A DNA stretch of 64,000 bases from an uncultured Planctomycetia bacterium (GCA_964650515.1 CAZYUB010000001.1:132640-196639), one strand, 5' to 3'; numbered from the stretch's first letter, positions 3,122 to 60,250 are shown. Notes: generated from the letters alone by a model not told the origin. Program-made: numbers and translations.

Positions 3122-3140
3122 CTGCAGGGAACTGGAAGCC

Positions 3141-3776: not shown

Positions 3777-3799
3777 CTTATCAATCTTAGGAGGGTTAA

Positions 3800-6341: not shown

Positions 6342-6355
6342 TATAGATTTACAGC

Positions 6356-6434
6356 GGGCCCGTGGTGCAGCCTGGTCTAGCACGTCAGATTGTCGATCTG
6401 AAGACCGCGAGTTCAAATCTCGTCGGGCCCGCCA
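6356..6434 (+). tRNA. tRNA-Asp (anticodon GTC)
   Basis: Acceptor GGGCCCG/CGGGCCC, anticodon loop TTGTCGA, T-loop TTCAAAT, encoded CCA. Confidence 0.85.
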
Positions 6435-10557: not shown

Positions 10558-10584
10558 AAAAAGTTTTTATGGTAAAATCCTGAC

Positions 10585-11276: not shown

Positions 11277-11283
11277 GGCACCT

Positions 11284-12483: not shown

Positions 12484-12494
12484 ACGGAGATAAT

Positions 12495-12899
12495 GTGCGT
12501 AAATACTTTCTCGCGGCAGCCGCAGCTGCCCTAACCCTGGCCGTAATAGCGGGCTGCGCGCAGGGCGGCTCGAGAGAAGCCAAGAAGATCATCGAAAAGG
12601 ACTCGGGCAAGACCATCGAGATGAGGGTCGGGGGCAGCATACTCGTAGAGCTCCCCGGGAACCCGTCGACCGGTTATATGTGGGAAGTGTCATCGATGGA
12701 CCGCTTGGTCCTGCAGAAGATAGGTGACCATAAGTTCTCCACGAATTCGAACGTCATCGGCGCGCCCGGGAAAGTATCGATGCGGTTCAGGGTCATCGGG
12801 CCGGGCAGGACGAATCTGGCCCTCGCCTACCGCAGGCCGTGGGAAAAGAACGTGCCTCCGGCGAAGGCCTTCTCCGTGGATGTCATAGCGGTGAAATAA
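12495..12899 (+). CDS. chagasin-family (I42) peptidase inhibitor lipoprotein
   Basis: Lipoprotein signal (AGC). NPSTGYMWEV matches the NPTTG[YF]xW chagasin motif. Confidence 0.7.
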   Translation: MRKYFLAAAAAALTLAVIAGCAQGGSREAKKIIEKDSGKTIEMRVGGSILVELPGNPSTGYMWEVSSMDRLVLQKIGDHKFSTNSNVIGAPGKVSMRFRVIGPGRTNLALAYRRPWEKNVPPAKAFSVDVIAVK

Positions 12900-12900
12900 G

Positions 12901-13779
12901 ATGCCGGCGCCCGTGCTGACCGTGACACTGAATCCCGCGGTAGACAGGACCGTCGACGGCCCGCGCGTCAAGCTGAGTGCCGGCGGCAAGGGCATAAATG
13001 TCTCCCGCGCGCTGAAGGCGCTCGGCGTGGAAAGCGTGGTTACGGGATTCGCCGGCGGTAAGACGGGAGATTTCATAAGGTCCGCGCTGAAGGAAGAGCG
13101 CATAAGCGGGCGTTTGGTCCGTATCCGCGGCGCATCGAGGCAGAACCTCACCGTGATCGGCAGGGGCGGCAAGATAACGCGCCGTATCGAAAAGGGCCCT
13201 GCTGTCTCTACGGAGGAATTCAGGAAATTTAAAAAAGTATTCGAGAAGCTCCTGCGCGGCCGGCGTTATGTGGTATTTTCCGGCGCCAACGCGAACGGCC
13301 TAAAGGACTCGGCTTACGCGGAACTCATAAGGATAGCGAAAAAGAACGGCGTAATGACCGCCCTCGATACGAGGGACGCCGCGCTTAAAGAAGGCCTTAA
13401 GGCAAAACCGGATATCGTGAAACCGAATATCAAGGAAGCGCGGTATATTTGCGGGAAAGCCCCGCTGGAATGTTTGCGCGATAAAGGGGCGCGGACGGTC
13501 CTGTTGACGATGGGCAAGGCAGGCGCCGCGGCTACGGACGGCAGGGATACGGCCATCGCGCGCCCGCCTAAAGTGAGGGCGGTAAATGATGTCGGCTGCG
13601 GTGACGCGTTCCTCGCGGGTTTCATCGCTTACAGGTTGAAGGGAAAGGATTTTAAAGAGTCGGTCCGGGCGGCAACTGCCGCAGGCGCCGCGAATGCTGC
13701 GGCGAAAGCCGCATGCGTCGTCCCGGGTTCGTTTAAAAGGCAGGATTTCCTGGAGATCCTCAGGCGGACGGATGTATAA
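12901..13779 (+). CDS. PfkB-family sugar kinase (1-phosphofructokinase/tagatose-6-phosphate kinase-like)
   Basis: C-terminal DVGCGDAF and an N-terminal GG(K)G.N motif. Confidence 0.8.
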   Translation: MPAPVLTVTLNPAVDRTVDGPRVKLSAGGKGINVSRALKALGVESVVTGFAGGKTGDFIRSALKEERISGRLVRIRGASRQNLTVIGRGGKITRRIEKGPAVSTEEFRKFKKVFEKLLRGRRYVVFSGANANGLKDSAYAELIRIAKKNGVMTALDTRDAALKEGLKAKPDIVKPNIKEARYICGKAPLECLRDKGARTVLLTMGKAGAAATDGRDTAIARPPKVRAVNDVGCGDAFLAGFIAYRLKGKDFKESVRAATAAGAANAAAKAACVVPGSFKRQDFLEILRRTDV

Positions 13780-15370
13780 GATAAAAGAAAGTGATATAAT
13801 AGAGACTTTCGTAAGGTCCGGCGGCCACGGCGGGCAGAACGTGAACAAGGTCTCGACCTGCGTGCACCTTAAGCATATCCCGACGGGCATAGAGGTGAGA
13901 TGCTCGCGGGAACGTTCGCAGGCCGCGAACCGCATGATAGCGCGGCACATACTCGCGATGAAGGTCGAGGAGAAGCTGCTCGGCCGGCAGTCGGAGATAC
14001 GGCAGAGGATAGAAAAGATACGCAGGCAAAAACGTAAACGCTCAAAGAGGGCTAAAGAGAAGATGCTAGCCGACAAAAAAATGCATTCGGAGAAGAAGTC
14101 CTTGCGCAGGAAGGTCACGGCTTTATCGGTTGTGTTATTGTTGTCCGTGCAGTCGGCCGCCTTCGCCATCAACTGGCGCGCGAACCTGCAGGATGCGATC
14201 AAGACGGCAAAGGACGGCAACAAGCCGGTCATGGTGGATTTCTATACCGACTGGTGCGGCTGGTGCAAGAAACTCGACAGCGAGACGTATTCTAATCCCA
14301 AGGTCTCTAAACTGGCGGAAAAATTCGTCTGCGTGAAGGTAAACGCAGAAAGGGAGCCGGCGCTCGCGGCAAAGTACCAGGTCACGGGATACCCGACGAT
14401 ACTCTTCCTCGACGGCAGCGGGAAGTCCCTGGCAAGGATACCCGGCTACCTGCCTCCCGACCGCCTGTATAGCGAGATGAACAAGGTTTTGCTGACGATG
14501 CCCCAGGTAGAGGACAAGGCGGGCGAGGGCAAGGGCGGCGGTTTCATAGTCCTTGATGACGGGCCCAAACTGGACAAGGACGGCAAGCCGGTCCCGCCGA
14601 AAACGGTAAAGCAGGATTTTGTGTATAACGGGTTCGTCGAAGCCAAAGGCGACGAACTAATGGTCCAGATAAATTACAAGGGAGAGACGTATTACGTGAC
14701 CGAGGGCGAATCGTTTGGCGGCTTTACGGTCAAGTCGGCGAACAAGGATAAAGTGGTCCTCTCCGGCCCCGGCGGCGCGGAGACCGTGCTGGAATTCAGG
14801 AAACCCGTAAAATCCGGCGAAGCGCTCGGTGCGATTAAAGACATGTTCGTCGAAATATCGCCGTCCGACGAACCGGTCGAATACGACACCACGGCGTCAG
14901 CTCCCGACATGATGGCAGGCAGGGCGAGGACGATCGTCTCGCTGCTTCCTATTGTAATATTCCTGCCGATCATGCTCGTCTTTTATGTTTATTATTCCCT
15001 CTGCCTGCAGTTCATCGCGCAGAAGACGAAGGCGGATAATATATGGCTCGCGTGGATCCCGGTAATAAACGTCTTCCTGCTGCTTAACATAGCGAAGATG
15101 AAATACAGGACATTCCTGTTCCCGGTGTTTGCGCTCATCGCGCTGACCGCGCTGCCGTTATTCGGGGCGTTCACGCCCCTGATCGGGCTGGTCCTGACGC
15201 TTGTCATGATGCTGACCGCGATCTATTTCATATTCCTTATGGTCTTCGTCTGGTACAGGATATCCGTGGAAAGGGGCAAATCGACGGGGCTGTCGGTCGT
15301 GCTCGCGATACTTATGTTCATATCCCCGCTGAACCTTTTTGCGCTCGGATACCTGGCTTTCTCTAAATAG
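13772..15370 (+). CDS. arfB: ArfB-like peptidyl-tRNA hydrolase (GGQ) reading frame continuing without a stop into a signal-peptide / thioredoxin-like (WCGWC) / multi-TM protein; the second protein may start at ATG 14086
   Basis: GGHGGQNVNKVST and a basic tail typical of ArfB (about 105 aa). Then MHSEKKSLRRKVTALSVVLLLSVQSAAFA resembles a signal peptide, followed by a thioredoxin fold (DWCGWCKK) and a C-terminal polytopic membrane domain. There is no in-frame stop between them; an A7 run sits at the junction. Confidence 0.6.
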   Translation: MYKIKESDIIETFVRSGGHGGQNVNKVSTCVHLKHIPTGIEVRCSRERSQAANRMIARHILAMKVEEKLLGRQSEIRQRIEKIRRQKRKRSKRAKEKMLADKKMHSEKKSLRRKVTALSVVLLLSVQSAAFAINWRANLQDAIKTAKDGNKPVMVDFYTDWCGWCKKLDSETYSNPKVSKLAEKFVCVKVNAEREPALAAKYQVTGYPTILFLDGSGKSLARIPGYLPPDRLYSEMNKVLLTMPQVEDKAGEGKGGGFIVLDDGPKLDKDGKPVPPKTVKQDFVYNGFVEAKGDELMVQINYKGETYYVTEGESFGGFTVKSANKDKVVLSGPGGAETVLEFRKPVKSGEALGAIKDMFVEISPSDEPVEYDTTASAPDMMAGRARTIVSLLPIVIFLPIMLVFYVYYSLCLQFIAQKTKADNIWLAWIPVINVFLLLNIAKMKYRTFLFPVFALIALTALPLFGAFTPLIGLVLTLVMMLTAIYFIFLMVFVWYRISVERGKSTGLSVVLAILMFISPLNLFALGYLAFSK

Positions 15371-24545: not shown

Positions 24546-25328
24546 ATGCGCATTATCTCTGCGGCGGTAATAACGGTGATCCTGTGCACGGGTACGGCAT
24601 TCGCGGACTCGAGGGAGGACGCGTTGATAGCCGCAGCGGCGTCCGGTGACGCTAAGAAAGTGGCGTGGTACGTCGGCGAGACGGTCAACATCAACTGCCG
24701 CGGGCAGGGCGGGACTACGCCTCTCATCGAAGCGGCTAAGAACGGGCAGGAAGCCGTCGTGAAATACCTGCTTATGCATTACGCCTCCGTCAACCTCGAC
24801 GACAACAATAACGCCTCGCCGCTGATGTATGCCGCGAAGGGCGGGTATACGGCCATAACGTCCGAACTGCTTTCGGCGGGGGCCAATCCCGCCAAGCAGG
24901 ATGTAGACGGCAACACGGCATTGATATATGCCGCGGAGAACGGGCATAGCGATACCGCGAAAGCGTTGCTCGATAAAGGCGCCGACCCTAACCAGAGGAA
25001 CACCGCCACCGATACCGCGCTTACCGTCGCGATCGAAGGCAAATACAAAGATATGGCGCAGCTGCTTTTGTCGAAAGGCGCCGACCCGAACACGAAGCTT
25101 ACCGAAGGCACTTTTTACGGCAGGCACGGCGACCGCAGCGGAAACGACGGCATCACGGCCCTGATGAGGGCAGCCCAATCCGGCAGTATCGATATAGTGC
25201 AGATGCTCCTGGATAAGGGCGCCAAGGTCAATGAAGTTACCACCACGAACGAAACCGCCCTTTCGTATGCCGTCGCAGGCGGGAATAAAGAGATCGCGGA
25301 CCTGCTCAGGAGCAAGGGCGCCAAGTAG
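24546..25328 (+). CDS. secreted ankyrin-repeat protein
   Basis: Signal peptide, then about 7 ANK repeats (G.TPL..AA..G....V..LL..GA..N). Confidence 0.8.
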   Translation: MRIISAAVITVILCTGTAFADSREDALIAAAASGDAKKVAWYVGETVNINCRGQGGTTPLIEAAKNGQEAVVKYLLMHYASVNLDDNNNASPLMYAAKGGYTAITSELLSAGANPAKQDVDGNTALIYAAENGHSDTAKALLDKGADPNQRNTATDTALTVAIEGKYKDMAQLLLSKGADPNTKLTEGTFYGRHGDRSGNDGITALMRAAQSGSIDIVQMLLDKGAKVNEVTTTNETALSYAVAGGNKEIADLLRSKGAK

Positions 25329-39310: not shown

Positions 39311-40161
39311 AAAAAGCGTTATACTGGGAAAATGCGGCCGTTACGGCGGCAGTGCACTGCCGCCTCTGCCCGCATGACTGCAAAATAGCGGATGGCGCGA
39401 CGGGAGTTTGCGGGGTGCGCCAAAATACCGGCGGCGCGCTCTACTCCCTCATATACGGCGAGACGACGTCCGTCGCGCTCGACCCCATAGAGAAGAAACC
39501 CCTCTACCATTACCATCCCGGCGAATATATCCTGTCGCTCGGCACGAAAGGGTGCAATTTCAAGTGCCCGTTCTGCCAGAACTGGGCGATATCACAGGAC
39601 GGCGGCGCCCCGTCCGAGAAGATAACACCCGAATGGGCCGTCGCGAAAGCGAAAGAACTCAGGTCATTCGGCATCGCGTATACGTATAATGAGCCGTTCA
39701 TCTGGTATGAGTTCGTCCTCGATACCGCGAAGCTGGCCAAAAAGGCCGGCCTCGAGAACGTGCTCGTGACAAACGGCTACGTGAACCCCGAACCTCTAAA
39801 GGAGATGCTGCCTTATATCGGCGCGATGAACATAGACCTGAAATCCATCGACGACGGGTTTTACAGGAAATACTGCAGGGGAAGTTTAGAGCCGGTCTTG
39901 CGCACAATAAAAACATCAGCGAAATCATGCCATATAGAAATAACCAACCTTGTCATAACGGGCCTCAACGATACCGACGGGGATTTTAAAAAATTATCCG
40001 ACTGGGTATGCGACAATACCGGGCCGGAGACGCCGCTGCATTTTTCGCGGTATTTCCCGTGCTACCAGATGAAGAACTTGCCGACCGACATCGAGACGCT
40101 TAAACGCGCCGGCGGAATAGCCGGGAAAAGGCTTAAATACGTCCATTTGGGGAATATATGA
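39307..40161 (+). CDS. AmmeMemoRadiSam-system-type radical SAM enzyme (PFL-activase-like)
   Basis: N-terminal [14 protein letters not shown] cluster plus [11 protein letters not shown] (Cx3Cx2C). TTG start overlaps the nrdR stop. Confidence 0.7.
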
Positions 40162-41222
40162 TTTTAGCGCCACAATATTTTAACGGAAAATTTTCTAAAG
40201 CCGCCTTAATATTCGGGATTTTTCTTTGTTCTATGCCGGCCTTATACGCCGACACCATCCGTCTTAAAAGCGGGAAGGCCTTGTTGGGCGAGATCATAGA
40301 CCAGAATAGCGCCTATATTGAATTGAGGATGCCCGCTGGGAAGACGAGGATAAGACTCACCGAGATAGAATCGATCGAAGAGGGGGAATTGCCCCCCGGC
40401 TTCTTTGAGGGAGCGGCTCCCGAAAAAGAGACTGTCACCGAACAAGGCGGACAGGAGAAGATATCCTGCAGCATCTCTTTGAACGCCGAATATTCGGTCG
40501 AGGACGGGAAAGACATCGTGGATATAAACGGTACGACAAACCTTCCCGACGGCGCGCTCATCTATATTTTCCTTAAAAGGCTGGACAGTTTCATCTCATC
40601 ATGCGAGACTTCGGTCAAGAGCGGGCAATTCTCGTTAAAACTCGGGCCATTTGACAAGCGCCTGGTATCAGGCAAGTATTCGGTCGAGGGGGATTTTATT
40701 GCCTATAGACAGACCGAAGAGGTCTTGATGAAAGTAAAGGCCGCTTTTGGCAGCCGGCCCGATGATAACGTGCATGCCGCGATAATCCTCAACATCAATA
40801 AAGGGGAAGATCCGCAGCTGAGCGAGGAGAGGGTGAAAAACGAGATAGTCTCATGGGCAGGCGAATTGACCAGGTTAAAGGAGGACCTGCAGAGAGAGTA
40901 TGTCTCCGGCAAAAAGAATTTCGATTCAGGGCGATGGAACCGCTGGTCTAAGGGGTGGCAATCCAAGCTTAATACGATCGAGGCAAAGATAAATAAGACG
41001 TCGGAAGAGGAGACGCCTTTATTCCCTCGCGCCCAGGAGAACCTTAAGATCGCGGTACAGCTGTTATCGGGCCTTTATAACGCCTACCAGATGGAGTTAA
41101 AGAAGCCGGCGAAATTCGAAAAGATATCAAAAGACCCGGACGCAAGAGCGAATTCCCAGGTCATGAGCAAATGCTTTAAAGAGATGATTGACAGCGCGAT
41201 AAAAGAGGCGGATTTAAATTAA
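40158..41222 (+). CDS. secreted hypothetical protein (low G+C)
   Basis: Signal peptide (cleavage near ALYA/D). No recognisable domains. Confidence 0.55.
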   Translation: MILAPQYFNGKFSKAALIFGIFLCSMPALYADTIRLKSGKALLGEIIDQNSAYIELRMPAGKTRIRLTEIESIEEGELPPGFFEGAAPEKETVTEQGGQEKISCSISLNAEYSVEDGKDIVDINGTTNLPDGALIYIFLKRLDSFISSCETSVKSGQFSLKLGPFDKRLVSGKYSVEGDFIAYRQTEEVLMKVKAAFGSRPDDNVHAAIILNINKGEDPQLSEERVKNEIVSWAGELTRLKEDLQREYVSGKKNFDSGRWNRWSKGWQSKLNTIEAKINKTSEEETPLFPRAQENLKIAVQLLSGLYNAYQMELKKPAKFEKISKDPDARANSQVMSKCFKEMIDSAIKEADLN

Positions 41223-43627
41223 TGTCTAGGAAAGGCATCGCCATGGTCATGGCGCTAGGAGTGCTTTCGCTGCTTGCGCTTATCGGAACGGTCTTTGCCA
41301 TTAACAGCATATTGGAACGGAAGCAGGCCTGGAATTATATCAACAAGGTAAAGGCGAGATATCTGGCGGAAGGCGGCTTAGCAAGGGCCATTGCCGAGCT
41401 GAAATACGGTTCAGAAGGCGTCCGCGCGAACGCAGTCGACACCGCTGCCGAGGTCTGGTATTCGAGCGGTTATAGCGACTCGAGCTTCTTCTCGGGGAGC
41501 GGAAGCTATTCGGTAGCGGTAGTGGATTGCGCCAGCAGGATAAACCTTAACGACCAAAATACTAATTTGCGATTATCGCAAATCCTGCAGAACCTGAACG
41601 CCATCATAGGAGCATCACTCACGGTTGCTGACTGCGACAATATAGCTTTCAACAGGCCTTATTCCGGGAAGGAAGAGGTCAAGATGTACCTGTCAGGGAG
41701 CCAGGCCGAGGTAGACGGCAAGTATGCCGCTATAGAGCCATATATTACCATTTATGGTTTTGTCGATGGCAGTGTCGTAAATCCTATTGACCTGTCGACA
41801 CCCGTATATCCTCTTCAGCCCAGGGCGCCCGTCAATGTCAATACCGCTTCGCAGCAGGTGATCCAGGCGGTGCTTACGGGTTTGCGCTCAAACAAGAATT
41901 GCCCTAACTGCGGGGGAGACGGATATATCAGGGCTGCCTACGGAGGAAACCCCAGTTGCTCAGCATGCAACGGCTCAGGTAATCTCCTTATAGATTCGAC
42001 AGAAGCCCAAGCCCTAGCCCAATATATAGTGGCAAACAGGCCTTATTCCACATGGCGCCAATTTTACGCGTCCATTCAATCATGCCCTTCCATAGGCCCG
42101 AGGGACTCCGACCTGGTCATGGCGAACTCTAACCCCAATACCGGATTCTCGTGGATCAGGCTCGATAGATGGGCTCGTAATTTGGGATATCTGGGAAAGT
42201 ACGTTCTGGATTTCAATTATAACCATAACTGTGACAGCGCCGATCCGGGCCTTGCGATCTCTACGACCGAGTTCAGTTTTGATTCGGGAGGTTATTACGA
42301 GATCAACTCCACAGGCGCAATGCTGGCTTCCCGGCAGGTCATCGGAGCGGTTGCTAAAATCTATGATATTTACAGGGAAACCACGCAAGCGCAGTTTGAG
42401 GCCGGCACTAAAAACTTAGTGGACACATACCCGGAACCTTTTGCGGCAGGAGTGAGCGCGGCGACTTATGACGGCCAAATTATGTTGGCAAAGAAGGCGC
42501 ATACGACGCCAAACAGCCCTTCATACTTCAGGGCCGATTACCGGACTACGGTCAATGCCGATGCCGGAGGAGGAAACCTTGCCCTACTGAACACGGCGAA
42601 TAAACCCAACATCTCAAGCGTCGTGGATTTTTCATCTTCCCTAATGCGGGGAGAATTACAGCCGGACGGAGACCTGATAGATTACTTTGATACCGTCCGC
42701 CCCTATTATTACCCGGTATCTAACATATCCCCCAGCGCCGGTACGATAGAGATATGGTTCAAGCCCAAATATAACAGTTTTGACTCGATGATATACGGGG
42801 ATTCCGACCAGGACAGGAAGATGTTCAGGTTTACCAGCGGTATATCTATCCCGCCCCACACACCCCCGAACGGCCTGCCTTTTGAAACATTTTTTTTCTG
42901 GTCAGATAACGGTTTTCTGTGGGCCGGGCTTATAGGGGGAGGAGGTTATTATAACGGTACCGATTGGTCGCACGTATGGGGATGGCAATGGGGATGGACG
43001 CCAGCCGGAGTAAGCTGGGATGCCGGAAAATGGAATCAATTAGTCGTCTCCTGGAGCAATCCCCCGGACCCTATGGACCCTACCCATTATACTACCTCCC
43101 TTAATCCCATAGTCTTATATATTAACGGCACTAAGAGGGTCACGAGTGTCTATTATTATCATACCCCCTACACCGATTCCACCGCGGATTATGCCATAAT
43201 GCCCGGCTTTGAGTATGGCCAGTGGAATGGCAATCAGATGGAGCTTTCGAATGCCATTATAGGTTCCGTGAGGATTTGGAATTCACAGTTGACCGATAAC
43301 GCCGTTCAGGCGGAATACAACAGCGGCCTCTACGAAGCGAGCGGAGACTTCACCTCTCCGGTTTTTTCCCCCGGAAGTACGGTTGACTGGGGGACGATCA
43401 CCTGGACATCGGACAGTGGCGGCCTGGTCTTCGATGTGGATACGGGAAGCGGCTCCTTTGCTGGTAATTGGGCATCCCCCGGGACCGGCCAGCCCATTAA
43501 CGCCAGCAGCAATTCGATAAAGTACAGGGCGAGCCTTAGGACATCTTCGCCATATACAAACACACCCGTATTGGAAGATGTAACGATCACTTACCTTACA
43601 AGGACGCAGATCTTATATTACAAATAG
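41222..43627 (+). CDS. GspK-like type II secretion/type IV pilus minor pseudopilin homolog with zinc-ribbon insert and C-terminal LamG/concanavalin-like domain
   Basis: N-terminal RKGIAMVMALGVLSLLALIGTVFA. VNVNTASQQV helix-hairpin-helix motif. Zinc-ribbon-like CPNCGGDG...CSACNGSG. C-terminal SVRIWNSQLTDNAVQAEYNSG (LamG-like). Confidence 0.6.
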   Translation: MSRKGIAMVMALGVLSLLALIGTVFAINSILERKQAWNYINKVKARYLAEGGLARAIAELKYGSEGVRANAVDTAAEVWYSSGYSDSSFFSGSGSYSVAVVDCASRINLNDQNTNLRLSQILQNLNAIIGASLTVADCDNIAFNRPYSGKEEVKMYLSGSQAEVDGKYAAIEPYITIYGFVDGSVVNPIDLSTPVYPLQPRAPVNVNTASQQVIQAVLTGLRSNKNCPNCGGDGYIRAAYGGNPSCSACNGSGNLLIDSTEAQALAQYIVANRPYSTWRQFYASIQSCPSIGPRDSDLVMANSNPNTGFSWIRLDRWARNLGYLGKYVLDFNYNHNCDSADPGLAISTTEFSFDSGGYYEINSTGAMLASRQVIGAVAKIYDIYRETTQAQFEAGTKNLVDTYPEPFAAGVSAATYDGQIMLAKKAHTTPNSPSYFRADYRTTVNADAGGGNLALLNTANKPNISSVVDFSSSLMRGELQPDGDLIDYFDTVRPYYYPVSNISPSAGTIEIWFKPKYNSFDSMIYGDSDQDRKMFRFTSGISIPPHTPPNGLPFETFFFWSDNGFLWAGLIGGGGYYNGTDWSHVWGWQWGWTPAGVSWDAGKWNQLVVSWSNPPDPMDPTHYTTSLNPIVLYINGTKRVTSVYYYHTPYTDSTADYAIMPGFEYGQWNGNQMELSNAIIGSVRIWNSQLTDNAVQAEYNSGLYEASGDFTSPVFSPGSTVDWGTITWTSDSGGLVFDVDTGSGSFAGNWASPGTGQPINASSNSIKYRASLRTSSPYTNTPVLEDVTITYLTRTQILYYK

Positions 43628-43761
43628 GATATCTATTGGCCTTGACAACCTCACCCGGCTTCTGATATCCTATATTCCAGAAGACAAAGGCGTCTACCTA
43701 ATATAAGCGACAAAGGGGACGCTTTTTTTGTTTCTATAAAACTATAAAAGGAGCCAGCAAA

Positions 43762-45175: not shown

Positions 45176-47758
45176 GTGGCTATAAGCACGGGACTGAAAG
45201 GGCTCGATAAGGTCATTACCGGCCTGAGGATCGGCGATAATGTCGTATGGCAGATCGACGATGTCAGGGATTACCAGCATTTTCTCGCGCCGTTCGTGAA
45301 GAAAGCGCTAGAAGAGAAGAAGAAGGTAATATACATAAGGTTCGCCAACCACAAGCCCCTGCTTGAGCAAATCAAGGGCATCCTTGTATACAAGCTCGAC
45401 GCGTATGAGGGCTTCGAGTCCTTCTCGACGAAACTCAACGGCATAATAAAAGAACACGGCGAAGGCGTATATTACGTCTTCGATTGCCTCTCCGACCTCC
45501 TGCCGGCATGGGCTAACGACCTGATGATAGGCAATTTCTTCAAAATAATGTGCCCGTACCTTTACGAGCTGAACACGATCGCCTATTTCTCTATACTGCG
45601 AAACAAACACTCCTTCAGGACGGTCGCCCGTATACGCGAAATAACCCAGCTGCTGATAGACGTCTACGAATACGAAGGCAGGTATTATGTCCACCCGCTG
45701 AAGGTCTGGAACCGGTATTCGCCGACGATGTTCCTTCCGCACCTGATAAGCCGCGACCGTTTCGTCCCGATAGCCAACAGCGCAGATACCGCGCGGCTCT
45801 TTTCGGACATATTGAAGAAGGGGACGAAGAGCACGCGCAGGAACCTCGATTACTGGGACCGGCTCTTCATGAAGGCAGAGGATCTCGCGTTAAAGGCGGG
45901 CTCGCAGGACGAGAAGAAGGATATGCTGCAGCGCCTCTGCAGGATAATGATCGCGCGGGAGGAAAAACTTCTCGCGCTGTCGGAGAGGAACTTTTCGCTT
46001 GAGGACCTCCTGGCCGCCAAATCGAAGATGATAGGCACGGGTTTCATAGGCGGCAAGGCCGTCGGCATGCTGCTCGCGAGGAGCATCCTCATGAAAGAGC
46101 GTTCGCTCGGCATGGACGGGTATTTCGAGCCGCACGACTCGTTTTACGTCGGTTCCGACGTCTTCTACACGTATATGGTCGAGAACGGATGGTGGAAGCT
46201 CAGGATGGAGCAGAAGACGAAAGACGGTTATTTCACCGTCGCGGAGTCGTTGCGCGAAAAGATGCTCGCGGGTGTGTTCCCCGACGAGATAAAGGAGCAG
46301 TTCCGGCAGCTCATCGAATATTACGGACAGTCCCCGATAATCGTGCGTTCGAGCTCCCTGCTCGAGGACAGTTTCGGCAACGCGTTCGCCGGCAAATACG
46401 AGAGCATCTTCCTCGTGAACCAGGGAACGCCGGAGGAGAGGTACGCGAAGTTCACCGAGGCGGTCAGGCGCGTCTACGCGAGCACGATGAACAAGGACGC
46501 GCTCGCCTACAGGCACCAGCGCGGCCTCGACCTGTCGGACGAGCAGATGGCCCTGTTGGTCCAGAGGGTGTCCGGCGCCTACCATGCGGATTACTTCTTC
46601 CCCGACATGGCCGGCGTCGGCATATCGTACAACACTTTCGTATGGAACAGCCAGATGGACCCGAAGGCGGGCATGCTGCGCATAGTAGTCGGCCTCGGCA
46701 CGCGCGCGGTCAACCGCGTCGAAGGCGATTACCCGAGAATAGCCGCGCTCGATATGCCGCTTGCGAAACCGCAGGCCGGCGCGAAAGATATCCAGAGGTT
46801 CTCGCAGCACGACCTCGACGTGCTTAACATAAAAGAGAACAAGCTCGAGACGGTACCGCTGCGGAAACTGCTCGCGCAGGGCGTGGACGTCAACCTCGAG
46901 TTTTCCGGCGTAAAGGATTATGAGGCCTCCCACAGGATGGAGGAGCTGGGAAGGACCGGCGAAGAATTCTGGGTGCTGACCTTCGACAAGCTTTTTACCG
47001 GAACGCAGTTCGGCGAGATCATGCAGAAGGCGTTGAAGTGCCTTGAGCGCCATTACGGATATCCTCTCGATATAGAATTCACGGTGAATTTCAAGAACAA
47101 CAGGGAATTCCGGATAAACCTCCTGCAATGCCGCCCGCTCCAGGCGAAGGGGCTCGGGACGAGGAAGGTCGAATTCCCGAAGAAGGTAGAGAATGACAAA
47201 GTCCTTCTCATGTCGAAGGGGTCTTTCCTCGGGGGCAACGTCTCGCAGCCGATAAGAAGATTGGTATACATCGACCCGCATAAGTACAGCGCCCTCCCGC
47301 TATCGTCTAAATACGACATCGCGCGGGCCGTCGGGGAGATCAACAGGGCAATAGGCGACAGGGATATGATGCCCGTGTTCCTAGTTGGGCCGGGCAGGTG
47401 GGGCACGACTACGCCGTCGCTCGGCGTGCCGGTATCTTTCTCGGAGATAAATAATATCGCGGTCCTCGGGGAACTCGCGTTCACCGAAGCGGACTATGCG
47501 CCGGAGCTCTCGTTCGGCACGCATTTTTTCCAGGACCTCGTCGAGGCGAACATCTTCTACCTCGCGGTCTTCCCGGACAGCGAGCACACCTTCTTCAACA
47601 GGGGCCTCATAGAGTCGTTCCCGAACTCGTTCAGGGGCATCGCGCCGTCTTTCGGGAAATATGAGGACGTCATAAAAGTGTACGACCCGCCCAAGGACCG
47701 GATGCGGCTTCTGGCCGACATCATCTCACAGGATGTCATGGTATATACCCAAAAATAG
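45176..47758 (+). CDS. PEP/pyruvate-binding (PPDK_N, PEP-synthase ATP-grasp-like) domain protein with degenerate N-terminal KaiC/RecA-like domain
   Basis: N-terminal ISTGLKGLDKV resembles KaiC but lacks the Walker A motif. Central region is PPDK_N-like (PF01326). No phospho-His or PEP-utilizing domains. GTG start. Confidence 0.65.
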   Translation: MAISTGLKGLDKVITGLRIGDNVVWQIDDVRDYQHFLAPFVKKALEEKKKVIYIRFANHKPLLEQIKGILVYKLDAYEGFESFSTKLNGIIKEHGEGVYYVFDCLSDLLPAWANDLMIGNFFKIMCPYLYELNTIAYFSILRNKHSFRTVARIREITQLLIDVYEYEGRYYVHPLKVWNRYSPTMFLPHLISRDRFVPIANSADTARLFSDILKKGTKSTRRNLDYWDRLFMKAEDLALKAGSQDEKKDMLQRLCRIMIAREEKLLALSERNFSLEDLLAAKSKMIGTGFIGGKAVGMLLARSILMKERSLGMDGYFEPHDSFYVGSDVFYTYMVENGWWKLRMEQKTKDGYFTVAESLREKMLAGVFPDEIKEQFRQLIEYYGQSPIIVRSSSLLEDSFGNAFAGKYESIFLVNQGTPEERYAKFTEAVRRVYASTMNKDALAYRHQRGLDLSDEQMALLVQRVSGAYHADYFFPDMAGVGISYNTFVWNSQMDPKAGMLRIVVGLGTRAVNRVEGDYPRIAALDMPLAKPQAGAKDIQRFSQHDLDVLNIKENKLETVPLRKLLAQGVDVNLEFSGVKDYEASHRMEELGRTGEEFWVLTFDKLFTGTQFGEIMQKALKCLERHYGYPLDIEFTVNFKNNREFRINLLQCRPLQAKGLGTRKVEFPKKVENDKVLLMSKGSFLGGNVSQPIRRLVYIDPHKYSALPLSSKYDIARAVGEINRAIGDRDMMPVFLVGPGRWGTTTPSLGVPVSFSEINNIAVLGELAFTEADYAPELSFGTHFFQDLVEANIFYLAVFPDSEHTFFNRGLIESFPNSFRGIAPSFGKYEDVIKVYDPPKDRMRLLADIISQDVMVYTQK

Positions 47759-53996: not shown

Positions 53997-56900
53997 ATGA
54001 AAGGTAATCGCGGTTTCGCGGCATTATCGACCCTAGCGCTGATCCTTTCAACCGGTTTTTACTCCTATGCAGATGTAGTTACGGTAGCTGACGATGAGAG
54101 CAAATCCTGGGCAACAGCCCCGGCGACCGACGGCATAAGGTTCACCGGCAGTAACGCTTCCGGGACGTATTCGACGACCGGCGGCGCCGACGGCAACACG
54201 ATCGCGGCGGTCACGGTAGATAACACCGCTTTGCTCGGTGTCGGCACGCTCGATTTTTACCACAGCACGACAGTATCCGGCGATATCGGCGACGCCAGCC
54301 ACAATCTCTCCGTAATACAATTGAAGACCGCCGGCAAGACGGTGACTATCAACGGCGACTCCTATGTCGCGGTGCTCTTCGATTTTGACGCGGACGGCAC
54401 GCTCGCGATAGCCAACGGCAAGGACTTTTCGGGAATAATATGCGGGAACGTCCTCGAGCCGGGCGATGACAATATAGGCACGCTGTCGCTCGGAGGGGAT
54501 AACAACTTCTCGCAACTGGTCGGGTGGAACAATACCTTAAGGCTGAAACAGGTTACCGGCGCCGCTACCGGCACATCGACATTTTACGGCGACGTCTTCG
54601 CGAAGGACATCGAGGTCTCTACGGGAAAGATCGTCTTTACAGGCGATCAAGTTGATACGGGAGCCGGCGGTGTGTTGAACTTTGCGGCCGCGGGCACGGT
54701 AGAGGTCGAAGACAACTGCAATATCGAATCGGCCATTACGGCAGCCGGAGGTGCCGGCGGGATCCTTACATTTGACGGCACATCTAACGTGAACACGACC
54801 GGCGGTTTTGATATCGGCCAGGCCGGCGCGGCGCTTACGATAAACGCGAACGGCGGCCTAGGCGAGACGCTGACACTCGGGGGCAATACGTATGCAACAA
54901 CGCTGAACTTCGGTGGCAACGGCACGGTCTCGGTCGCGGACAACAAGAACCTTACTGCGGCCGTAACGACATCCACTCCGAACACGGGCACGTTGAATTT
55001 TGCGGGCACCAGCACGGCGACCGGGCAGATAGGGACGATCGCGAACCCGCTGTTGCTCGTTAAAGCCGCAGGGTCTCCCGAAAGTTTGACATTGAACGGC
55101 GATGTTTATGCTTCGGAGATCTATGTCGCGGATGACGGGACCGTCGTCTTCTCCGACGGTGCCGATTATAACAACGGCGCGGCCGCCGGCAGTATCACGA
55201 CCGAGTCGGATTGGTACGGTTATATTCAATTCAGGGGTTCGAGCGTCATTAATGGTTCGATTGGTACCGCGCTGGAAAACTTTTATGAGATAAGGTTGGA
55301 CCAGGCGGATCCTTCGGATGTCGTCGAGGTAACAGGCGACCTTTATATAATAGACGGCAACGGCGTGAATTTCGACAGTGACGGCGAATTGATAATAGGC
55401 GGGGATTTTTACGGAGTGATCGAAAATGACACAGCCGGTACGGCCGGCACGGTGACGTTCGGCGGGAACGCTGAGTTAGAATGGCTCGGATTCCCGCTGA
55501 GACGGGTCAACGCGAACGGCACAGGCACCTCGATAGTCGCCACTTATGGTTTCGAGACCGAGACCCTCAGTTTCGGCGGTGACGGGACAGTGACGCTGGA
55601 GGACGGGACGATCACGATAGGCAGCGTATTGAACAGCAGCGGAACGGATAGTTCAGGAACGCTGGGGTTCCATGCTGATAGCACCGTGACGGGCAATGTA
55701 GGCGCGCCCGGCGCTTCACTTAAGGCGATACTCCTTGATAACAACAACGTCAATCTGGACCTGCAGGGGGACGTCTATGCCGGCACCCTCGGTTTCGGCG
55801 AAGGGGAGGAACACTCCGACGGCGAGATAGAGATAGGCGGTACGGCCGTCATCGGCCCCGTAACGACGCTCTATGATGATTTCGGCACATTGACGCTCGA
55901 AGGCAACGGCACCGTCAACGGCGATATGGGCGCCGACGGCGCCGCGTTGAGGGCGGTAAATATCGTCGGAGCCGCCGGCACGACGGTCACGGTCAACGGC
56001 GATATCTGGGCTTTTGACATGACGGTCGACGCAGGTTCACTGCTGATGAACGGCTCGTTCACCGACCCCGGGGATCCTCCCACAACGCTTAACTTCTCAT
56101 CAGACGGTTTCGTGACTTTGGCCGCCGGAAACAATATCAGCTCAAATATCACGACCGGCACTGACGGCACGGGCACGCTGTCCCTTGGAGGCGCAAACAC
56201 GATCACCGGAAATATAGGCGGCGCGGGCGCGGCCCTGAAACTGATAGAATTGACCGGCTCCGGCGCGACGGTCACGCAGGCCGGCAATACGGTCACGAAA
56301 GGGATAAGTCTCGGTTCTGGCAGGATGGATATCGACGGTACCTTCGATATTTCCGACGGCGGAAGCATCGCGGCCGGAATCGAGGGGACCGCTTCCTGCG
56401 GAAAAGTGGTCTCAACCGGAGCGGCAACAGTCCCGGCAACGGCGACGGTAAACGTCAGCGTGAGCGGATACGTGCCTTCCGGGGCTACATTCACGATCGT
56501 CGACGGCACCGGCGGGACCGGCGTCGCAGGCGGCTTACCCGTCACTTCTAACAGCAGGATACTTACATTCGCCGCGGTCGCAACGGATTCCGAAGACCTC
56601 ATGCTTACCGCGACGAGGGCGCATTCTTACGGCAATGCGACCACCGGCGAAGCGAGCGTGATAGGCGCGATCCTCGAGCAGATAGGCGAGAGCGGAGCTT
56701 CTGGCGATATGCTCACGATATTGAACGAGCTCGATACGCTTCCCGACGATGAAAGCTTACAAGCCGCGCTCGATACGCTGGCACCCGTTGTCGACAGCGG
56801 CACGGTCACTGCAAGCAATACCTCATTGAACCAGTTCATAGCGACCGTCATCGACCGGCTCGGGGCCCTATTCGCGCGTTCGCACGGCTCCGCCGGCCCA

Positions 56901-57773
56901 GAGACCGGCGTCTCGGCCGGAAGCAGCGGCAAGAGCGGCCTTGAGGCATGGGGCCAGGGCTTCGGCGAATATGTGAAACAGAAACCGCGCGGCACGAGCA
57001 ACGGCTACCGCGCGACGGTCTGGGGCACGGCGCTCGGTGCAGACATCCCGGCCTTCAACGACAGGGTCCGCCTCGGATTAAGCGGCGGTTATGCGGCGAC
57101 CGGCATCAATTCGAAGGATAACAGCGGCAAGACCGACATAGACAGCTACCAGGGCACGTTATACGCCGGCTATATAGACCCCGAACACCCGTATTACCTG
57201 AACGGCTCGTTCTCGTTCGCGTATAACAAGTACGAGGGCAAGAGGCATATAGCGGTCGGCACCATAACCAGGACCGCGGACGCCGATTACGACGGCCAGC
57301 AGTATTCCGTTCTGCTTGACGGCGGCTATACGTTCAAGGCCAAGCCCGTGAACATAACTCCTGTCGCCTCCCTGCAGTATATGCGTCTGCATCTCGAGGG
57401 CTATACCGAGACGGGCGCGGGCGCGCTGGACCTGAATATGAACAGCCAGAACTACGACATGCTGCAGTCGGGCCTCGGCGTCAAGTTCGACCGCGCGTTC
57501 GAGACAGGATCCGGCACGGTCATTCCCGAGGTCCATGTCAGATGGCTCCATGATTTCATCGGGGACAGGCAGGAGACGACCTCGACATTTGCCGGAGGAG
57601 GCGGCTCTTTCGCGACGCAGGGATTCGAACCGGCGCAGAACGCCCTTAACGTCGGAGCGAAGCTTGCCCTGATAACAAGGGGCAGCTGGAGTATTGAGAC
57701 GAATTATGACTTTGAATATAAAGAGGACTTCGCCGCCCATACGGGTTGGGCCGAGGCGAGATATAAATTTTGA
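53997..57773 (+). CDS. large autotransporter (type Va) with repetitive beta-helical passenger and C-terminal beta-barrel domain
   Basis: Signal peptide. About 900 aa Gly/Thr/Asn-rich repeats. C-terminal about 280 aa autotransporter beta-domain ending in Y-K-F. Confidence 0.8.
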   Translation: MKGNRGFAALSTLALILSTGFYSYADVVTVADDESKSWATAPATDGIRFTGSNASGTYSTTGGADGNTIAAVTVDNTALLGVGTLDFYHSTTVSGDIGDASHNLSVIQLKTAGKTVTINGDSYVAVLFDFDADGTLAIANGKDFSGIICGNVLEPGDDNIGTLSLGGDNNFSQLVGWNNTLRLKQVTGAATGTSTFYGDVFAKDIEVSTGKIVFTGDQVDTGAGGVLNFAAAGTVEVEDNCNIESAITAAGGAGGILTFDGTSNVNTTGGFDIGQAGAALTINANGGLGETLTLGGNTYATTLNFGGNGTVSVADNKNLTAAVTTSTPNTGTLNFAGTSTATGQIGTIANPLLLVKAAGSPESLTLNGDVYASEIYVADDGTVVFSDGADYNNGAAAGSITTESDWYGYIQFRGSSVINGSIGTALENFYEIRLDQADPSDVVEVTGDLYIIDGNGVNFDSDGELIIGGDFYGVIENDTAGTAGTVTFGGNAELEWLGFPLRRVNANGTGTSIVATYGFETETLSFGGDGTVTLEDGTITIGSVLNSSGTDSSGTLGFHADSTVTGNVGAPGASLKAILLDNNNVNLDLQGDVYAGTLGFGEGEEHSDGEIEIGGTAVIGPVTTLYDDFGTLTLEGNGTVNGDMGADGAALRAVNIVGAAGTTVTVNGDIWAFDMTVDAGSLLMNGSFTDPGDPPTTLNFSSDGFVTLAAGNNISSNITTGTDGTGTLSLGGANTITGNIGGAGAALKLIELTGSGATVTQAGNTVTKGISLGSGRMDIDGTFDISDGGSIAAGIEGTASCGKVVSTGAATVPATATVNVSVSGYVPSGATFTIVDGTGGTGVAGGLPVTSNSRILTFAAVATDSEDLMLTATRAHSYGNATTGEASVIGAILEQIGESGASGDMLTILNELDTLPDDESLQAALDTLAPVVDSGTVTASNTSLNQFIATVIDRLGALFARSHGSAGPETGVSAGSSGKSGLEAWGQGFGEYVKQKPRGTSNGYRATVWGTALGADIPAFNDRVRLGLSGGYAATGINSKDNSGKTDIDSYQGTLYAGYIDPEHPYYLNGSFSFAYNKYEGKRHIAVGTITRTADADYDGQQYSVLLDGGYTFKAKPVNITPVASLQYMRLHLEGYTETGAGALDLNMNSQNYDMLQSGLGVKFDRAFETGSGTVIPEVHVRWLHDFIGDRQETTSTFAGGGGSFATQGFEPAQNALNVGAKLALITRGSWSIETNYDFEYKEDFAAHTGWAEARYKF

Positions 57774-57837: not shown

Positions 57838-57854
57838 ATGCACACGTGAACAAT

Positions 57855-58865
57855 ATGAAGAAGAGACCAACGATCGTAGATGTAGCAAAAGGCGCCGGGG
57901 TAACGCATTCGACGGTTTCCAGGGTCATCAACAACAACCCTGCAATAAGCCAGGAGACCAAGACGAAGGTGCTCCAGGTCATAAGCGAGATGAGATACCA
58001 GCCGAACCTGATCGCCCGCAGCCTTGTAAGGAAGAAGACGCGCTCTTTCGCGATAATAGCGCCCGACCTCCACCCGCATGTCCTGCCCATATTGAAAGGC
58101 ATAACCGACACCTGCAGGAGGAACAATTACGCGCTTATGCTCTTCTCAACCGATTACTGGGCCGATGAAGGGCTATCGTGCAGCGACATAGTCAGGAACT
58201 GGCTCGTTGACGGCTTGATCGTCTATAACGTCGCGTACCATAAAGATATTCCGGATAACATAAAAGAATTGCAGAAAGAGGGCGTTCCGCTCGTCTTCAT
58301 CGATAAGTACCTCGGGACGAAGAAGGTGAACAATATCAGCCTCGATAACGACGACGCGATGCGGCAGGCGGTAGGCCACCTGGTCAACCTCGGCCATAAG
58401 AAGATAGGCATGATGAACGGCGGGCTTATGTCCGTTGACGGGATCGGCCGTTCCGAGGGTTATAAAAATGCCCTGAAGAAGTTCGGGCTCGAGTATGACG
58501 AAAATATCACGGGCAACGCGGACTTTTTCTTCCATGAAGCGTATGAAGAGATGAAGAGGATCCTCTGCTTCCCGTCAAAACCGGACGCGATGATCTGCGC
58601 CAACGACGAGATGGCGGCCGGTGTCATAAAAGCGGCGCAGGATAAGGGGATGAAGGTCCCGCAGGATATAGCGGTAATGGGCTTCGACGATTGGGAAGGG
58701 GCAAAGTTCCTGAAGCCGTCCCTGACGACCTTGAGGTTCCCTCTCGAGGACATCGGAGGCAAGGCGATAGATATGATGCTGAACCTCATAGAGGACCCCA
58801 AGAGGCCGGTGGAGGAAGTGGCCCTTCGCGCGAGGCTTATAGTACGTGAATCAACGGAGAAGTGA
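57855..58865 (+). CDS. LacI-family transcriptional regulator
   Basis: N-terminal HTH (PTIVDVAKGAGVTHSTVSRV) plus a periplasmic-binding-protein-like effector domain. The 57846 GTG is an alternative start. Confidence 0.85.
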   Translation: MKKRPTIVDVAKGAGVTHSTVSRVINNNPAISQETKTKVLQVISEMRYQPNLIARSLVRKKTRSFAIIAPDLHPHVLPILKGITDTCRRNNYALMLFSTDYWADEGLSCSDIVRNWLVDGLIVYNVAYHKDIPDNIKELQKEGVPLVFIDKYLGTKKVNNISLDNDDAMRQAVGHLVNLGHKKIGMMNGGLMSVDGIGRSEGYKNALKKFGLEYDENITGNADFFFHEAYEEMKRILCFPSKPDAMICANDEMAAGVIKAAQDKGMKVPQDIAVMGFDDWEGAKFLKPSLTTLRFPLEDIGGKAIDMMLNLIEDPKRPVEEVALRARLIVRESTEK

Positions 58866-58922
58866 TATTTTTTTGCCCATCAATGCACACGTGGGCATAA
58901 ACCAGAGAAAGGAGGGTGCAGT

Positions 58923-59567
58923 ATGAAGAACGTGTTTGCAGCGGTATTGGCAGTAGCGGTAGTGTTGGTCGTGGCACCGTCGGACGTTTTCGCTAACTTG
59001 TTGACCAACGGGGACTTTGAGTCCGGCACAATGGGTTACTACGGGGATGCGGCCACCGTTATCGACGGTTGGACGAGGTGGGGAAACAGCGGTTGGTATC
59101 ACAATGATTACAACCATACCTCAGCCGGCGCGAGAGGCATCAAGTCATGGTCCGATGATACAGGTACATACCAGGACTTTGCCGTCACATCGGGTACCCA
59201 GTATAATTTAAGCGGTTTCGCTTACGCCCCTTCAGCCGACGCTCCTGTCGGTTGGGACGGCGTCTTTAAGGTCGAATGGTTCAACACTGACACGAAACTT
59301 TCCGAGAACGAGATCGGCCGGTTTGTCGGCGGAACTGACGCGGTGAATACGTGGAAGTCGCTCTCAGGGACATTCGTTGCCCCGACTGACGCAAATAAGG
59401 CCCGCGTCGTTTTGAACCTTGCCGACGCTAACGGCGCGACGCCGAACGGCGGTTCTATCGGCTGGGATGATATGGACGCGCAGGCGGTCCCGGAACCCGC
59501 GAGCTTATTGCTTCTCGGATCGGGATTGGCAGGATTGATAGGCCTTAGGAAAAAGACAACCAGGTAA
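58923..59567 (+). CDS. PEP-CTERM sorting-domain protein with CBM4/9-like (carbohydrate-binding) domain
   Basis: Signal peptide. NLLTNGDFE CBM-like opening. C-terminal VPEPASLLLLGSGLAGLIGLRKK. Confidence 0.8.
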   Translation: MKNVFAAVLAVAVVLVVAPSDVFANLLTNGDFESGTMGYYGDAATVIDGWTRWGNSGWYHNDYNHTSAGARGIKSWSDDTGTYQDFAVTSGTQYNLSGFAYAPSADAPVGWDGVFKVEWFNTDTKLSENEIGRFVGGTDAVNTWKSLSGTFVAPTDANKARVVLNLADANGATPNGGSIGWDDMDAQAVPEPASLLLLGSGLAGLIGLRKKTTR

Positions 59568-59686
59568 TTTCGAAAGATCTTCCTTCTAACCCGAGGAAGA
59601 ACGGGGCAAGGGCCCCGAGAGCATACCCGGATAGTAAGCTCAAAGGCCTTTGCCCCGCACCCCCTATTTTAAAAAGAAAGGCACCG

Positions 59687-60250
59687 ATGAAAAGATATTA
59701 TCTTCTGTTGATAGCTATGGCGATGGGTATCACGGCCCCGGCAATTGCCGCGGAAAGCCCGATACCGAACGCGAGTTTTGAAGAGCCGTCCGGCGCCGCG
59801 GGCGGGGAGCCCGCCGGATGGTGGTCCTGGAACGGCGACTACAACGGTGTCACTACCGACGCCGCGAATACGGGCGCGCAGTCTATATATGTGAGCTCGG
59901 AGGCGAAGCCGGAGTGCGCGAGCGGCATATTGTACAACTTCAAGCCGGTGACGCCCGGCAAGACCTATTCGTTCTCGTGCTATGTCCGTAATTCGTCCAC
60001 AGACCCTATCACGGGCGGAGCGTACGGGCAGGTAAGTTTAGAATGGCGCAAGGGCGACAGGGAGATAGACGGCACCCGCACCTGGGGCGAGACATGGGGC
60101 CCGGACCTTCCGGATTCGGATTGGAAGCTCGTCAACGTGACAGCGCCGGCTCCCGAGGGCGCTGACTCATGCAACCTGGTCATACAGTTCTTCAATAAGG
60201 ACGGCAAGGGGACTTTTTACGCCGACGACGCCGCAATATCGGAAAAATAG
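59687..60250 (+). CDS. secreted CBM4/9-like domain protein (paralog of upstream gene, no PEP-CTERM tag)
   Basis: Signal peptide. NASFEEP opening. Confidence 0.6.
   Translation: MKRYYLLLIAMAMGITAPAIAAESPIPNASFEEPSGAAGGEPAGWWSWNGDYNGVTTDAANTGAQSIYVSSEAKPECASGILYNFKPVTPGKTYSFSCYVRNSSTDPITGGAYGQVSLEWRKGDREIDGTRTWGETWGPDLPDSDWKLVNVTAPAPEGADSCNLVIQFFNKDGKGTFYADDAAISEK

Follow-up and report, generated by a model that had tools for sequence, protein, structure and literature searches.

A GspK-type pseudopilin with a LamG-like lectin module and its Sec-exported partner form a conserved gene cassette in Omnitrophota

The 64,000-nucleotide (nt) stretch of DNA considered here, referred to in its whole length as the window, comes from an uncultured Planctomycetia bacterium (GCA_964650515.1 CAZYUB010000001.1:132640-196639) and contains two adjacent genes on its + strand. 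Gene 1 (40158..41222, 354 amino acids (aa)) encodes the Sec-exported partner protein of a family of lectin-bearing, GspK-type (K) pseudopilins, and gene 2 (41222..43627, 801 aa) encodes a member of that family, a GspK-type minor pseudopilin with a zinc ribbon, a LamG-like lectin module and a conserved C-terminal β-sandwich. Gene 1 and K are a conserved cassette in Omnitrophota, which in the window lies apart from other pilus genes. The coordinates of both open reading frames (ORFs) in the original prediction, which was made by a model from the sequence, proved exact, and all the parts of the two genes described below are likewise on the + strand. The ATG of gene 1 overlaps the stop codon of the upstream radical-SAM gene (ATGA) and the ATG of gene 2 overlaps the stop codon of gene 1, so that the pair reads as the tail of a long pur-glyA-nrdR-radical-SAM gene string. 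On the other side, 135 nt separate the pair from gdhA, and a plausible gdhA promoter-like site was located at 43642-43671, the exception in a promoter/terminator scan whose counts were otherwise not above those of shuffled controls. The immediate neighbours of the pair, the radical-SAM and gdhA genes, are of the housekeeping kind.

Gene 2 begins with a prepilin-like N-terminus and α1 spine (residues 1-62, 41222..41407), read from the sequence and modelled as a helix at residues 4-62, with a sub-threshold PilX_N match at 4-54. The N-terminus consists of MSRKG followed by IAMVMALGVLSLLALIGTVFA, that is, a short basic leader with Gly5 at position -1 and then a hydrophobic helix with Met, not Glu, at position +5. 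This pattern of a Gly at -1, a hydrophobic helix and a Glu-less +5 is common to 43 homologs, and lack of Glu5 characterises the GspK/PilX class. The GspK-fold module as a whole covers approximately residues 1-403 (41222..42430, a boundary estimated from secondary structure only) and comprises a pilin sheet with an inserted α-domain. It includes the helix-hairpin-helix (HhH) RAPVNVNTASQQVIQAVLTGL (residues 201-222, 41822..41887), which is matched by Pfam T2SSK at residues 204-222, while the HHH_3 model matches eight of the 43 relatives; in its RAPVNVNTA motif, R201, N205, N207, T208 and A209 are invariant in the 43 homologs. After the VNVNTA motif, the α-domain carries a clade-specific insert, the four-Cys zinc ribbon CPNCGGDG...CSACNGSG (residues 227-254, 41900..41983), with sub-threshold matches to DnaJ_CXXCXGXG, DUF5351 and anti-TRAP. 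The insert is present in 27 of the 43 family members, and a short SDG.N.IS loop takes its place in the remainder. The hydrophobic GspK-like N-terminus, the VNVNTA motif and the zinc ribbon, all three announced by the original prediction, are thus all present.

From the perspective of sequence models, gene 2 itself yields sub-threshold Pfam matches to PilX_N, T2SSK and DnaJ_CXXCXGXG, no match to N_methyl/IPR012902, and nothing at E <= 1 when compared by sequence with the chains of the PDB. A database search returned 59 homologs of 770-1060 aa, nearly all of them from metagenome-assembled genomes (MAGs) of Candidatus Omnitrophota. At the level of the family, T2SSK (PF03934) matches 32 of the 43 aligned members (E <= 0.01, best 2.1e-10), Laminin_G_3 17, PilX_N 14 and CBM_4_9 five. 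Fold comparison was decisive for the relationships of gene 2, which are seen by this means only. The AlphaFold2 (AF2) model, calculated from the 43-homolog alignment (mean predicted local distance difference test score (pLDDT) 92, predicted template modelling score 0.88), shows a 59-residue N-terminal helix and the GspK fold, a pilin β-sheet with a large inserted α-domain. The best structural matches of the K module are GspK/XcpX of the type II secretion system (T2SS), with most of the XcpX chain covered; the pilin PilC (7oa7/7oa8) is also among the fold matches, and Foldseek is in agreement. The structure prediction proposed in the original prediction therefore returned a GspK fold with a zinc-ribbon insert and a LamG-like module, and the identity of gene 2 as a GspK with these two additions can be stated with high confidence. 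Both the architecture of the model and its fold matches are those of a pilin carrier module fused to an independent functional module.

The functional module begins with a LamG/concanavalin-like jelly roll (approximately residues 478-711, 42653..43354), assigned from the structure. It has the ConA/LamG-superfamily fold, is LamG/CBM40-like, and its structural matches are mainly carbohydrate-binding modules (CBMs). Laminin_G_3 (PF13385) has no match at E <= 1 in gene 2 itself and matches 17 of the 43 relatives, with a best value of 1.2e-15. The LamG-like C-terminus that had been predicted is thus supported by the structure, although it is not the very end of the protein, since a further conserved β-sandwich of about 90 residues lies downstream (approximately residues 712-801, 43355..43624; model strands 721-800), ending in TPVLEDVTITYL..ILYYK. 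Few parts of the family are better conserved than the terminal strands of this sandwich, TPVLEDVTITY...ILY, and T781, P782, L784, D786, V787, T790, Y791 and Y799 are nearly invariant. The sandwich stays at the extreme C-terminus in family members of 1030 aa, in which a CBM_4_9-like domain is inserted just before it, and it is also kept in a K paralog (K') of the PA14 type, described below.

Gene 1 starts with a predicted Sec-type signal peptide (residues 1-31, 40158..40250), recognised by reading the sequence, which is not a prepilin signal and whose predicted cleavage site falls between ALYA and D. A31 is nearly invariant in the alignment, and the AF2 model, with an overall pLDDT of 80, drops below 50 for residues 1-29. 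Three further parts can be distinguished. The first is a small N-terminal β-barrel, Lepto_7_Nterm (residues 17-73, 40206..40376; NCBIfam NF047433, 44.6 bits against a cut-off of 43), for which the model shows strands at 32-74 and which is absent in several family members and thus optional. The second is a conserved Ig-like β-sandwich with the motif TNLPD...FGPF.KR..G.Y.VE (residues 106-213, 40473..40796). The third is a C-terminal helical bundle (residues 219-352, 40812..41213) that resembles periplasmic four-helix-bundle (4HB) sensor domains and whose extreme C-terminus is not conserved. Neither the PilY1 β-propeller (IPR008707) nor a conserved extreme C-terminal strand was found in gene 1. 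A PilY1/MshQ-like function, modelled on PMC13533445, in which gene 1 would donate a terminal β-strand to K, was considered and rejected as the default, given its unconserved C-terminus; it is also disfavoured by the coverage of the XcpX chain by the K module, as that chain supplies the strand in cis.

A word-indexed single-sequence search with gene 1 recovered itself and one ortholog only, and the family was assembled from the neighbours of gene 2 homologs. Its core is small: of 1.84 billion cluster representatives, 25 match at E <= 1e-30 and 58 at E <= 1e-10. In all the contexts first examined, the relatives of gene 1 (E 1e-25 to 1e-31) are the immediate neighbours of relatives of gene 2. A hidden Markov model survey of 88 loci extended this picture: a gene 1 homolog abuts 23 of the 26 close gene 2 homologs, upstream or downstream and mostly at a distance of 0-4 nt, and a contig edge and a frameshift account for two of the three loci without this arrangement. 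Additionally, in a mirror-tree comparison of 31 cassettes, the pairwise identities within the two families correlate with r = 0.80 (Mantel 0/2000), and nearest neighbours are concordant in 22 of the 31. This correlation and concordance suggest that cassettes are inherited and duplicated as units. Gene 1, which the original prediction had listed as an incidental secreted hypothetical protein, is instead an obligate, co-diverging partner of the K family.

The genomic contexts of the relatives reveal where the cassette comes from. The closest non-syntenic homolog of gene 2, P0001 (809 aa, 59% identity), is found at locus L095 in the order GspH (RRGFTLIEM), GspI-like, GspJ (PF11612), gene 1 homolog (45.5%), K and fusA. 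P0002 (51%, locus L096) is a K amid N_methyl and T2SSJ genes, and relatives at 47-48%, including L089, form arrays of the type GspH-I-J-K'(PA14)-G1-G1-K-G1-K-fusA, in which G1 stands for gene 1 homologs. At L089, the GspH-I-J-K' operon (87-4857) begins about 100 nt after a 23S-5S rRNA pair. The K' paralog (L089 4935-7910, also L004 820-3795) has 991 aa, with PA14 replacing LamG, while the sandwich and its own gene 1 partner are kept. More distant K-like genes of Omnitrophota, Auribacterota and Planctomycetota directly follow two to five prepilin genes. The K-like proteins of 950-1400 aa from Planctomycetota and Auribacterota (L048-L088) share the N-terminal ~400 residues, and some of their genes are followed by weak gene-1-like genes encoding 330-690 aa, which suggests that the arrangement of K plus partner predates Omnitrophota. 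The origin of the cassette is therefore a GspH-I-J-(gene1)-K minor-pseudopilin operon, of which it is a duplicable unit.

Besides these operons, the cassette occurs as dispersed copies, three or four of which may be found on different contigs of a single MAG. Five of the seven contexts sampled are loci for glycoside hydrolases (GHs) of families GH94, GH9, GH2, GH5, GH113, GH130 or GH35, that is, for carbohydrate-active enzymes (CAZymes), and these also hold LacI/GntR regulators, ATP-binding cassette (ABC) sugar transporters and small CBM/PEP-CTERM proteins. A different setting is that of P0024, a lone K homolog of 1009 aa with no gene 1 neighbour (10001-13030 of both L091 and L092), whose surroundings are variable and defence-island-like, with ApeA HEPN, SMODS plus S_4TM, and Fic genes. 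At 57846-60250 of the window, the gene of a LacI-family regulator precedes those of two small secreted CBM_4_9 proteins, the first of which has a PEP-CTERM anchor; the same kinds of genes flank the K/gene 1 cassettes of L001, L094, L093 and L007.

In the window itself, Pfam scans of the tested ORFs across the 64 kb found no gspG/H/I/J, other pilin, secretin, ATPase or platform-protein gene; the pur genes at ~27.7-35.6 kb were outside the direct scan, and their syntenic counterparts in the relative L013 carry purine-synthesis domains only. A six-frame scan of the whole window for the prepilin motif G-[FYL]-T-L-[IV]-E also gave no match. The lack of nearby gspG/H/I/J, secretin and ATPase genes that had been noticed from the sequence is thus borne out, and GspD secretin, GspE ATPase, retraction ATPase and GspC/L/M are missing from every fetched relative locus as well. 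GspH/I/J-type neighbours are likewise absent from the window and present beside the homologs of L095 (as H-I-J-G1-K), L096 and L089. The term orphan, applied to gene 2 in the original prediction, therefore holds at this locus, although not for the family, whose closest members sit in minor-pseudopilin operons and are no stand-alone invention. The circumstance that had been named as speaking against the prediction, namely the occurrence of the pair within a gsp operon of relatives, was found in part, in the GspH-I-J-gene1-K-fusA order of P0001, around P0002 and in the 47-48% relatives. Because these homologs are accompanied by GspH/I/J genes, the pair in the window is best described as a copy, either detached or additional, of part of such an operon.

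Judged by fold, N-terminus and operon origin together, a K-class tip/initiator subunit is the best-supported identity, and gene 2 probably serves at the tip of a filament as a lectin-bearing subunit of the K class that has a cognate partner. The proposal that it is a tip module for a filament system encoded elsewhere is thus partly supported and still the best reading, with the GspK-type identity backed by structure. According to this reading, gene 2 would be the initiator (tip) subunit, of the GspK/PilX class, of a type IV filament, which could be a type IV pilus or a pseudopilus like that of a T2SS. It would insert in the inner membrane through its α1 helix, be processed by a prepilin peptidase and join a GspI-GspJ-type pair encoded elsewhere in the genome. 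By analogy with the GspIJK crystal structures and with tip-complex models (PMC13533445), it would then nucleate and cap the filament, displaying at the tip a lectin module whose most likely ligand is a glycan. Gene 1 would be a Sec-exported, cassette-specific accessory acting on its cognate K, either in the periplasm, as a chaperone or holder of the bulky lectin subunit, or at the tip, as an associated partner; any one specific role is assigned to it tentatively. Copies of the cassette are scattered over Omnitrophota genomes, commonly in carbohydrate-utilisation loci.

Regarding the ligand, glycan binding by the lectin module is slightly favoured, because its fold relatives are mostly CBMs and because CAZyme loci make up five of the seven contexts of dispersed paralogs. 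These contexts, and the variety of modules grafted onto K (LamG, LamG plus CBM, PA14), suggest alternative substrate- or glycan-matched tips for one machine. A bolder and rather doubtful extension holds that Omnitrophota, and more divergently Planctomycetota and Auribacterota, use interchangeable tip cassettes, each consisting of a K with a different lectin module (LamG, LamG plus CBM_4_9, or PA14) and a cognate secreted partner, located inside individual polysaccharide-utilisation loci and co-regulated with them. One machine would thereby be re-tipped for the glycan under degradation, and gene 1 would represent a new class of tip-complex accessory unrelated to PilY1.

Several observations weigh against placing gene 2 at a filament tip. 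The curated models give it low scores, with 32.2 bits (E 7.9e-8) for NCBIfam NF037980 (T2SS_GspK) against a cut-off of 130 bits and 15.1 bits for Pfam T2SSK PF03934 against a threshold of 24.2. I/J partners, prepilin peptidase, ATPase and secretin are not visible in the 64-kb window, so that for the source genome gene 2 is a candidate filament subunit. The ligand is putatively a glycan, and proteins and lipids too are bound by LamG folds. The window copy is outside any CAZyme locus, the nearest LacI/CBM_4_9 genes being 14 kb off. Finally, with respect to the partner, a mirror-tree correlation can be produced by linkage alone, and the role of gene 1 is a guess, as its fold matches are generic and it lacks the conserved C-terminal strand of the PilY1 type.

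Among the alternatives, gene 2 could be the GspK tip of a secreting T2SS pseudopilus, in which the lectin and C-terminal modules recognise exoproteins and not environmental glycans. These exoproteins, for example neighbouring glycoside hydrolases or gene 1, would be pushed through a secretin, and gene 1 would be a substrate or an adaptor. The T2SS GspK/XcpX structures are indeed the best matches of gene 2, the pseudopilins next to its relatives match GspH and T2SSJ models, many cassettes lie beside secreted CAZymes, and gene 1, like T2SS substrates, carries a Sec signal peptide. However, GspH/I/J/K-like sets also define the minor pilins of type IVa pili (T4aP), so that Pfam names do not discriminate between the two, and the presence of one K paralog per CAZyme locus is equally predicted by substrate-matched adhesion. 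In addition, a secretin or GspC/L/M context is seen at no locus, and the LamG module matches mainly carbohydrate-binding modules. Selection of T2SS cargo is accordingly an unlikely function for the cassette.

A second alternative reduces the prepilin-like helix to a tether for a periplasmic or surface carbohydrate-binding protein, the detached copies having lost any role in a filament, with gene 1 as a periplasmic binding partner that works with adjacent sugar-uptake systems. This would fit the lack of adjacent I/J genes at the window locus and at most close paralogs, the link to ABC sugar transporters and LacI regulators, which is compatible with periplasmic glycan handling, and the 4HB-like helical bundle of gene 1. 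Against it, in the dispersed copies the GspK fold is still complete, the HhH still invariant and the sheet strands TTEFSF.SGGYYE still highly conserved, an upkeep that argues for continued selection on filament-assembly interfaces, and the closest homologs lie within H-I-J-K operons. A mere membrane-anchored lectin is therefore improbable, and the filament tip subunit is retained as the preferred reading of gene 2.

The question of how the pair reached its present site was addressed through base composition. The pair region is the most compositionally deviant of the window: its G+C is ~0.49-0.52, compared with 0.57-0.60 in the flanks, and its G+C at third codon positions (GC3) is 0.62 for gene 1 and 0.59 for gene 2, against a window mean of 0.73 +/- 0.06 (51 genes). 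At 0.307, against 0.179 +/- 0.035, its tetranucleotide distance from the profile of the window is exceeded in one of 122 sliding windows only, which itself overlaps the pair region. The G+C and tetranucleotide calculations suggested by the original prediction thus both give atypical values, and the drop in composition and its recovery at gdhA are real, although the onset is at ~39.5 kb, in the 3' half of the radical-SAM gene, and not at 40158. Cassettes are atypical in the window and in L013, whereas those of most other genomes match the composition of their host, which rules out low G+C as an intrinsic trait of the cassette family. The G+C of L095 is 0.52, like that of the window cassette.

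The designation of the pair as an island stands as far as composition is concerned, but not for the usual companions of an island. Pfam scans of the tested window ORFs show no integrase or mobility gene, the distance from the pair to the nearest tRNAs exceeds 23 kb, and a search for bracketing repeats around it found none. Moreover, L013, with ~82% nucleotide identity and identical gene order, has the pair at the same position; its syntenic gene 2 ortholog (L013 10166-11456) is frameshifted within the zinc-ribbon coding region, through either an assembly error or pseudogene formation. The findings are most economically explained by an older event within Omnitrophota, a lateral acquisition or a relocation, that pre-dates the split between window and L013, and not by a recent mobile-element insertion. 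The probable source of the window cassette is a lower-G+C Omnitrophota lineage, from which it would have been transferred laterally before the lineages of the window and L013 diverged. A recently transferred mobile or phage-derived receptor-binding module, of the tail-fibre lectin type and merely GspK-like at its N-terminus, is a highly improbable source, given that integrase, nearby tRNA and bracketing repeats are all lacking, that the ~82% relative has the pair at the same site, that the family resides on chromosomes, in linkage with pseudopilin operons, and that comparison with PHROGs, after which a phage origin was rejected, gave weak zinc-ribbon motif matches only.

Compared with known systems, gene 2 is closest to T2SS GspK/XcpX (ETEC GspK, 3CI0; P. 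aeruginosa XcpX, 5VTM; NF037980 and PF03934), with which it shares the Glu5-less prepilin-like N-terminus and the HhH VNVNTA, and as in the T2SS its closest relatives are encoded after GspH-I-J. Unlike them, it is 2.5 times larger, contains a zinc ribbon in the α-domain, a LamG jelly roll and a terminal β-sandwich, and remains under the curated sequence cut-offs. The cassette also differs in its dedicated Sec-exported partner, lacking in canonical T2SS, and in being multi-copy and dispersed, with the window copy detached from H/I/J. Enlarged GspK-like initiator pilins with β-rich or lectin-type C-terminal tip domains are represented by CofB and TcpB of type IVb pili, on which CofJ and TcpF, Sec-exported proteins of ~35 kDa encoded in the same operons, dock. 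The resemblance of the cassette to the CofB-CofJ and TcpB-TcpF pairs is a functional analogy only, as no relationship of gene 1 to CofJ/TcpF was detected in sequence or fold.

The T4aP fimU-pilVWX-pilY1 and MSHA mshDOPQ clusters are similar to the cassette operons in combining H-I-J-K minor pilins with a large, Sec-exported non-pilin protein beside K. They differ in that gene 1 has neither the β-propeller nor the conserved C-terminal strand of PilY1-type tip modules, and in that the adhesin-like module is on K itself. Within Tad systems (CpaL/TadG), CpaL is a K-like subunit with a large insert and a conserved extreme C-terminus, which folds back on the pilin sheet (Ellison et al. 2026, PMC13533445), and the enlarged, K-like gene 2 is also conserved at its extreme C-terminus, which could fold back likewise.

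Lectin-bearing modular type IV pilins are established, an example being PilC of Streptococcus sanguinis (7OA7/7OA8; Raynaud et al. 2021, PMC8179133; PMC9934059). PF13385 and PA14 are among the modules of 264 modular-pilin architectures, and GspK itself has been termed a modular pilin (PMC8179133). The carrier of gene 2 differs from that of PilC in being a K-class module that lacks the IPR012902/Glu5 motif, and the family differs in belonging to a diderm candidate phylum, in its partner gene and in its copies in CAZyme loci. Since the modular-pilin survey was keyed on IPR012902 (PMC8179133), which the K class lacks, it may have missed the gene 2 family. A literature search combining Omnitrophota with pseudopilin, and GspK with LamG, found no description of the family. 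The cassette is not a categorically new system, and its orphan aspect is largely explained by the minor-pseudopilin operon origin; what was not found described in the literature is the combination of a K-class carrier bearing LamG and a zinc ribbon, a co-diverging secreted partner and dispersed cassettes in carbohydrate loci.

If the reading of gene 2 as a tip subunit is correct, the principle of modular pilins would extend to the K-class initiator subunit, and filament tips would be tied directly to carbohydrate-utilisation loci in a poorly understood and mostly uncultured phylum. It would offer a concrete, testable approach to the way in which the small cells of Omnitrophota adhere to polysaccharides or to other cells' surfaces, or harvest them, and the small, uncharacterised gene 1 family would be a likely fifth component of the minor-pseudopilin operon. 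For annotation, two hypothetical proteins become a recognisable cassette.

Other genes of the window present features of their own. The lowest G+C of the window (0.46; GC3 0.50) belongs to the gene of a helix-turn-helix protein at 5536-6434, directly before tRNA-Val and tRNA-Asp, which may be the remnant of an integrated element. Two ankyrin-repeat proteins, each with strong Ank matches, are encoded at 8427-9287 and 24546-25328 of this bacterial genome. The mechanically called ORF at 13694-15370 combines an RF-1 (peptidyl-tRNA hydrolase) domain with thioredoxin-like domains and may represent two genes or an unusual fusion. Downstream of the cassette, an 860-aa protein (45176-47758) shows PPDK_N (PEP/pyruvate-binding) only at residues 291-660, its N-terminal 290 residues having no Pfam match. 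Finally, a 1258-aa protein at 53997-57773 ends in a C-terminal autotransporter β-domain (PF03797, E 1.4e-64), preceded by an uncharacterised passenger domain.

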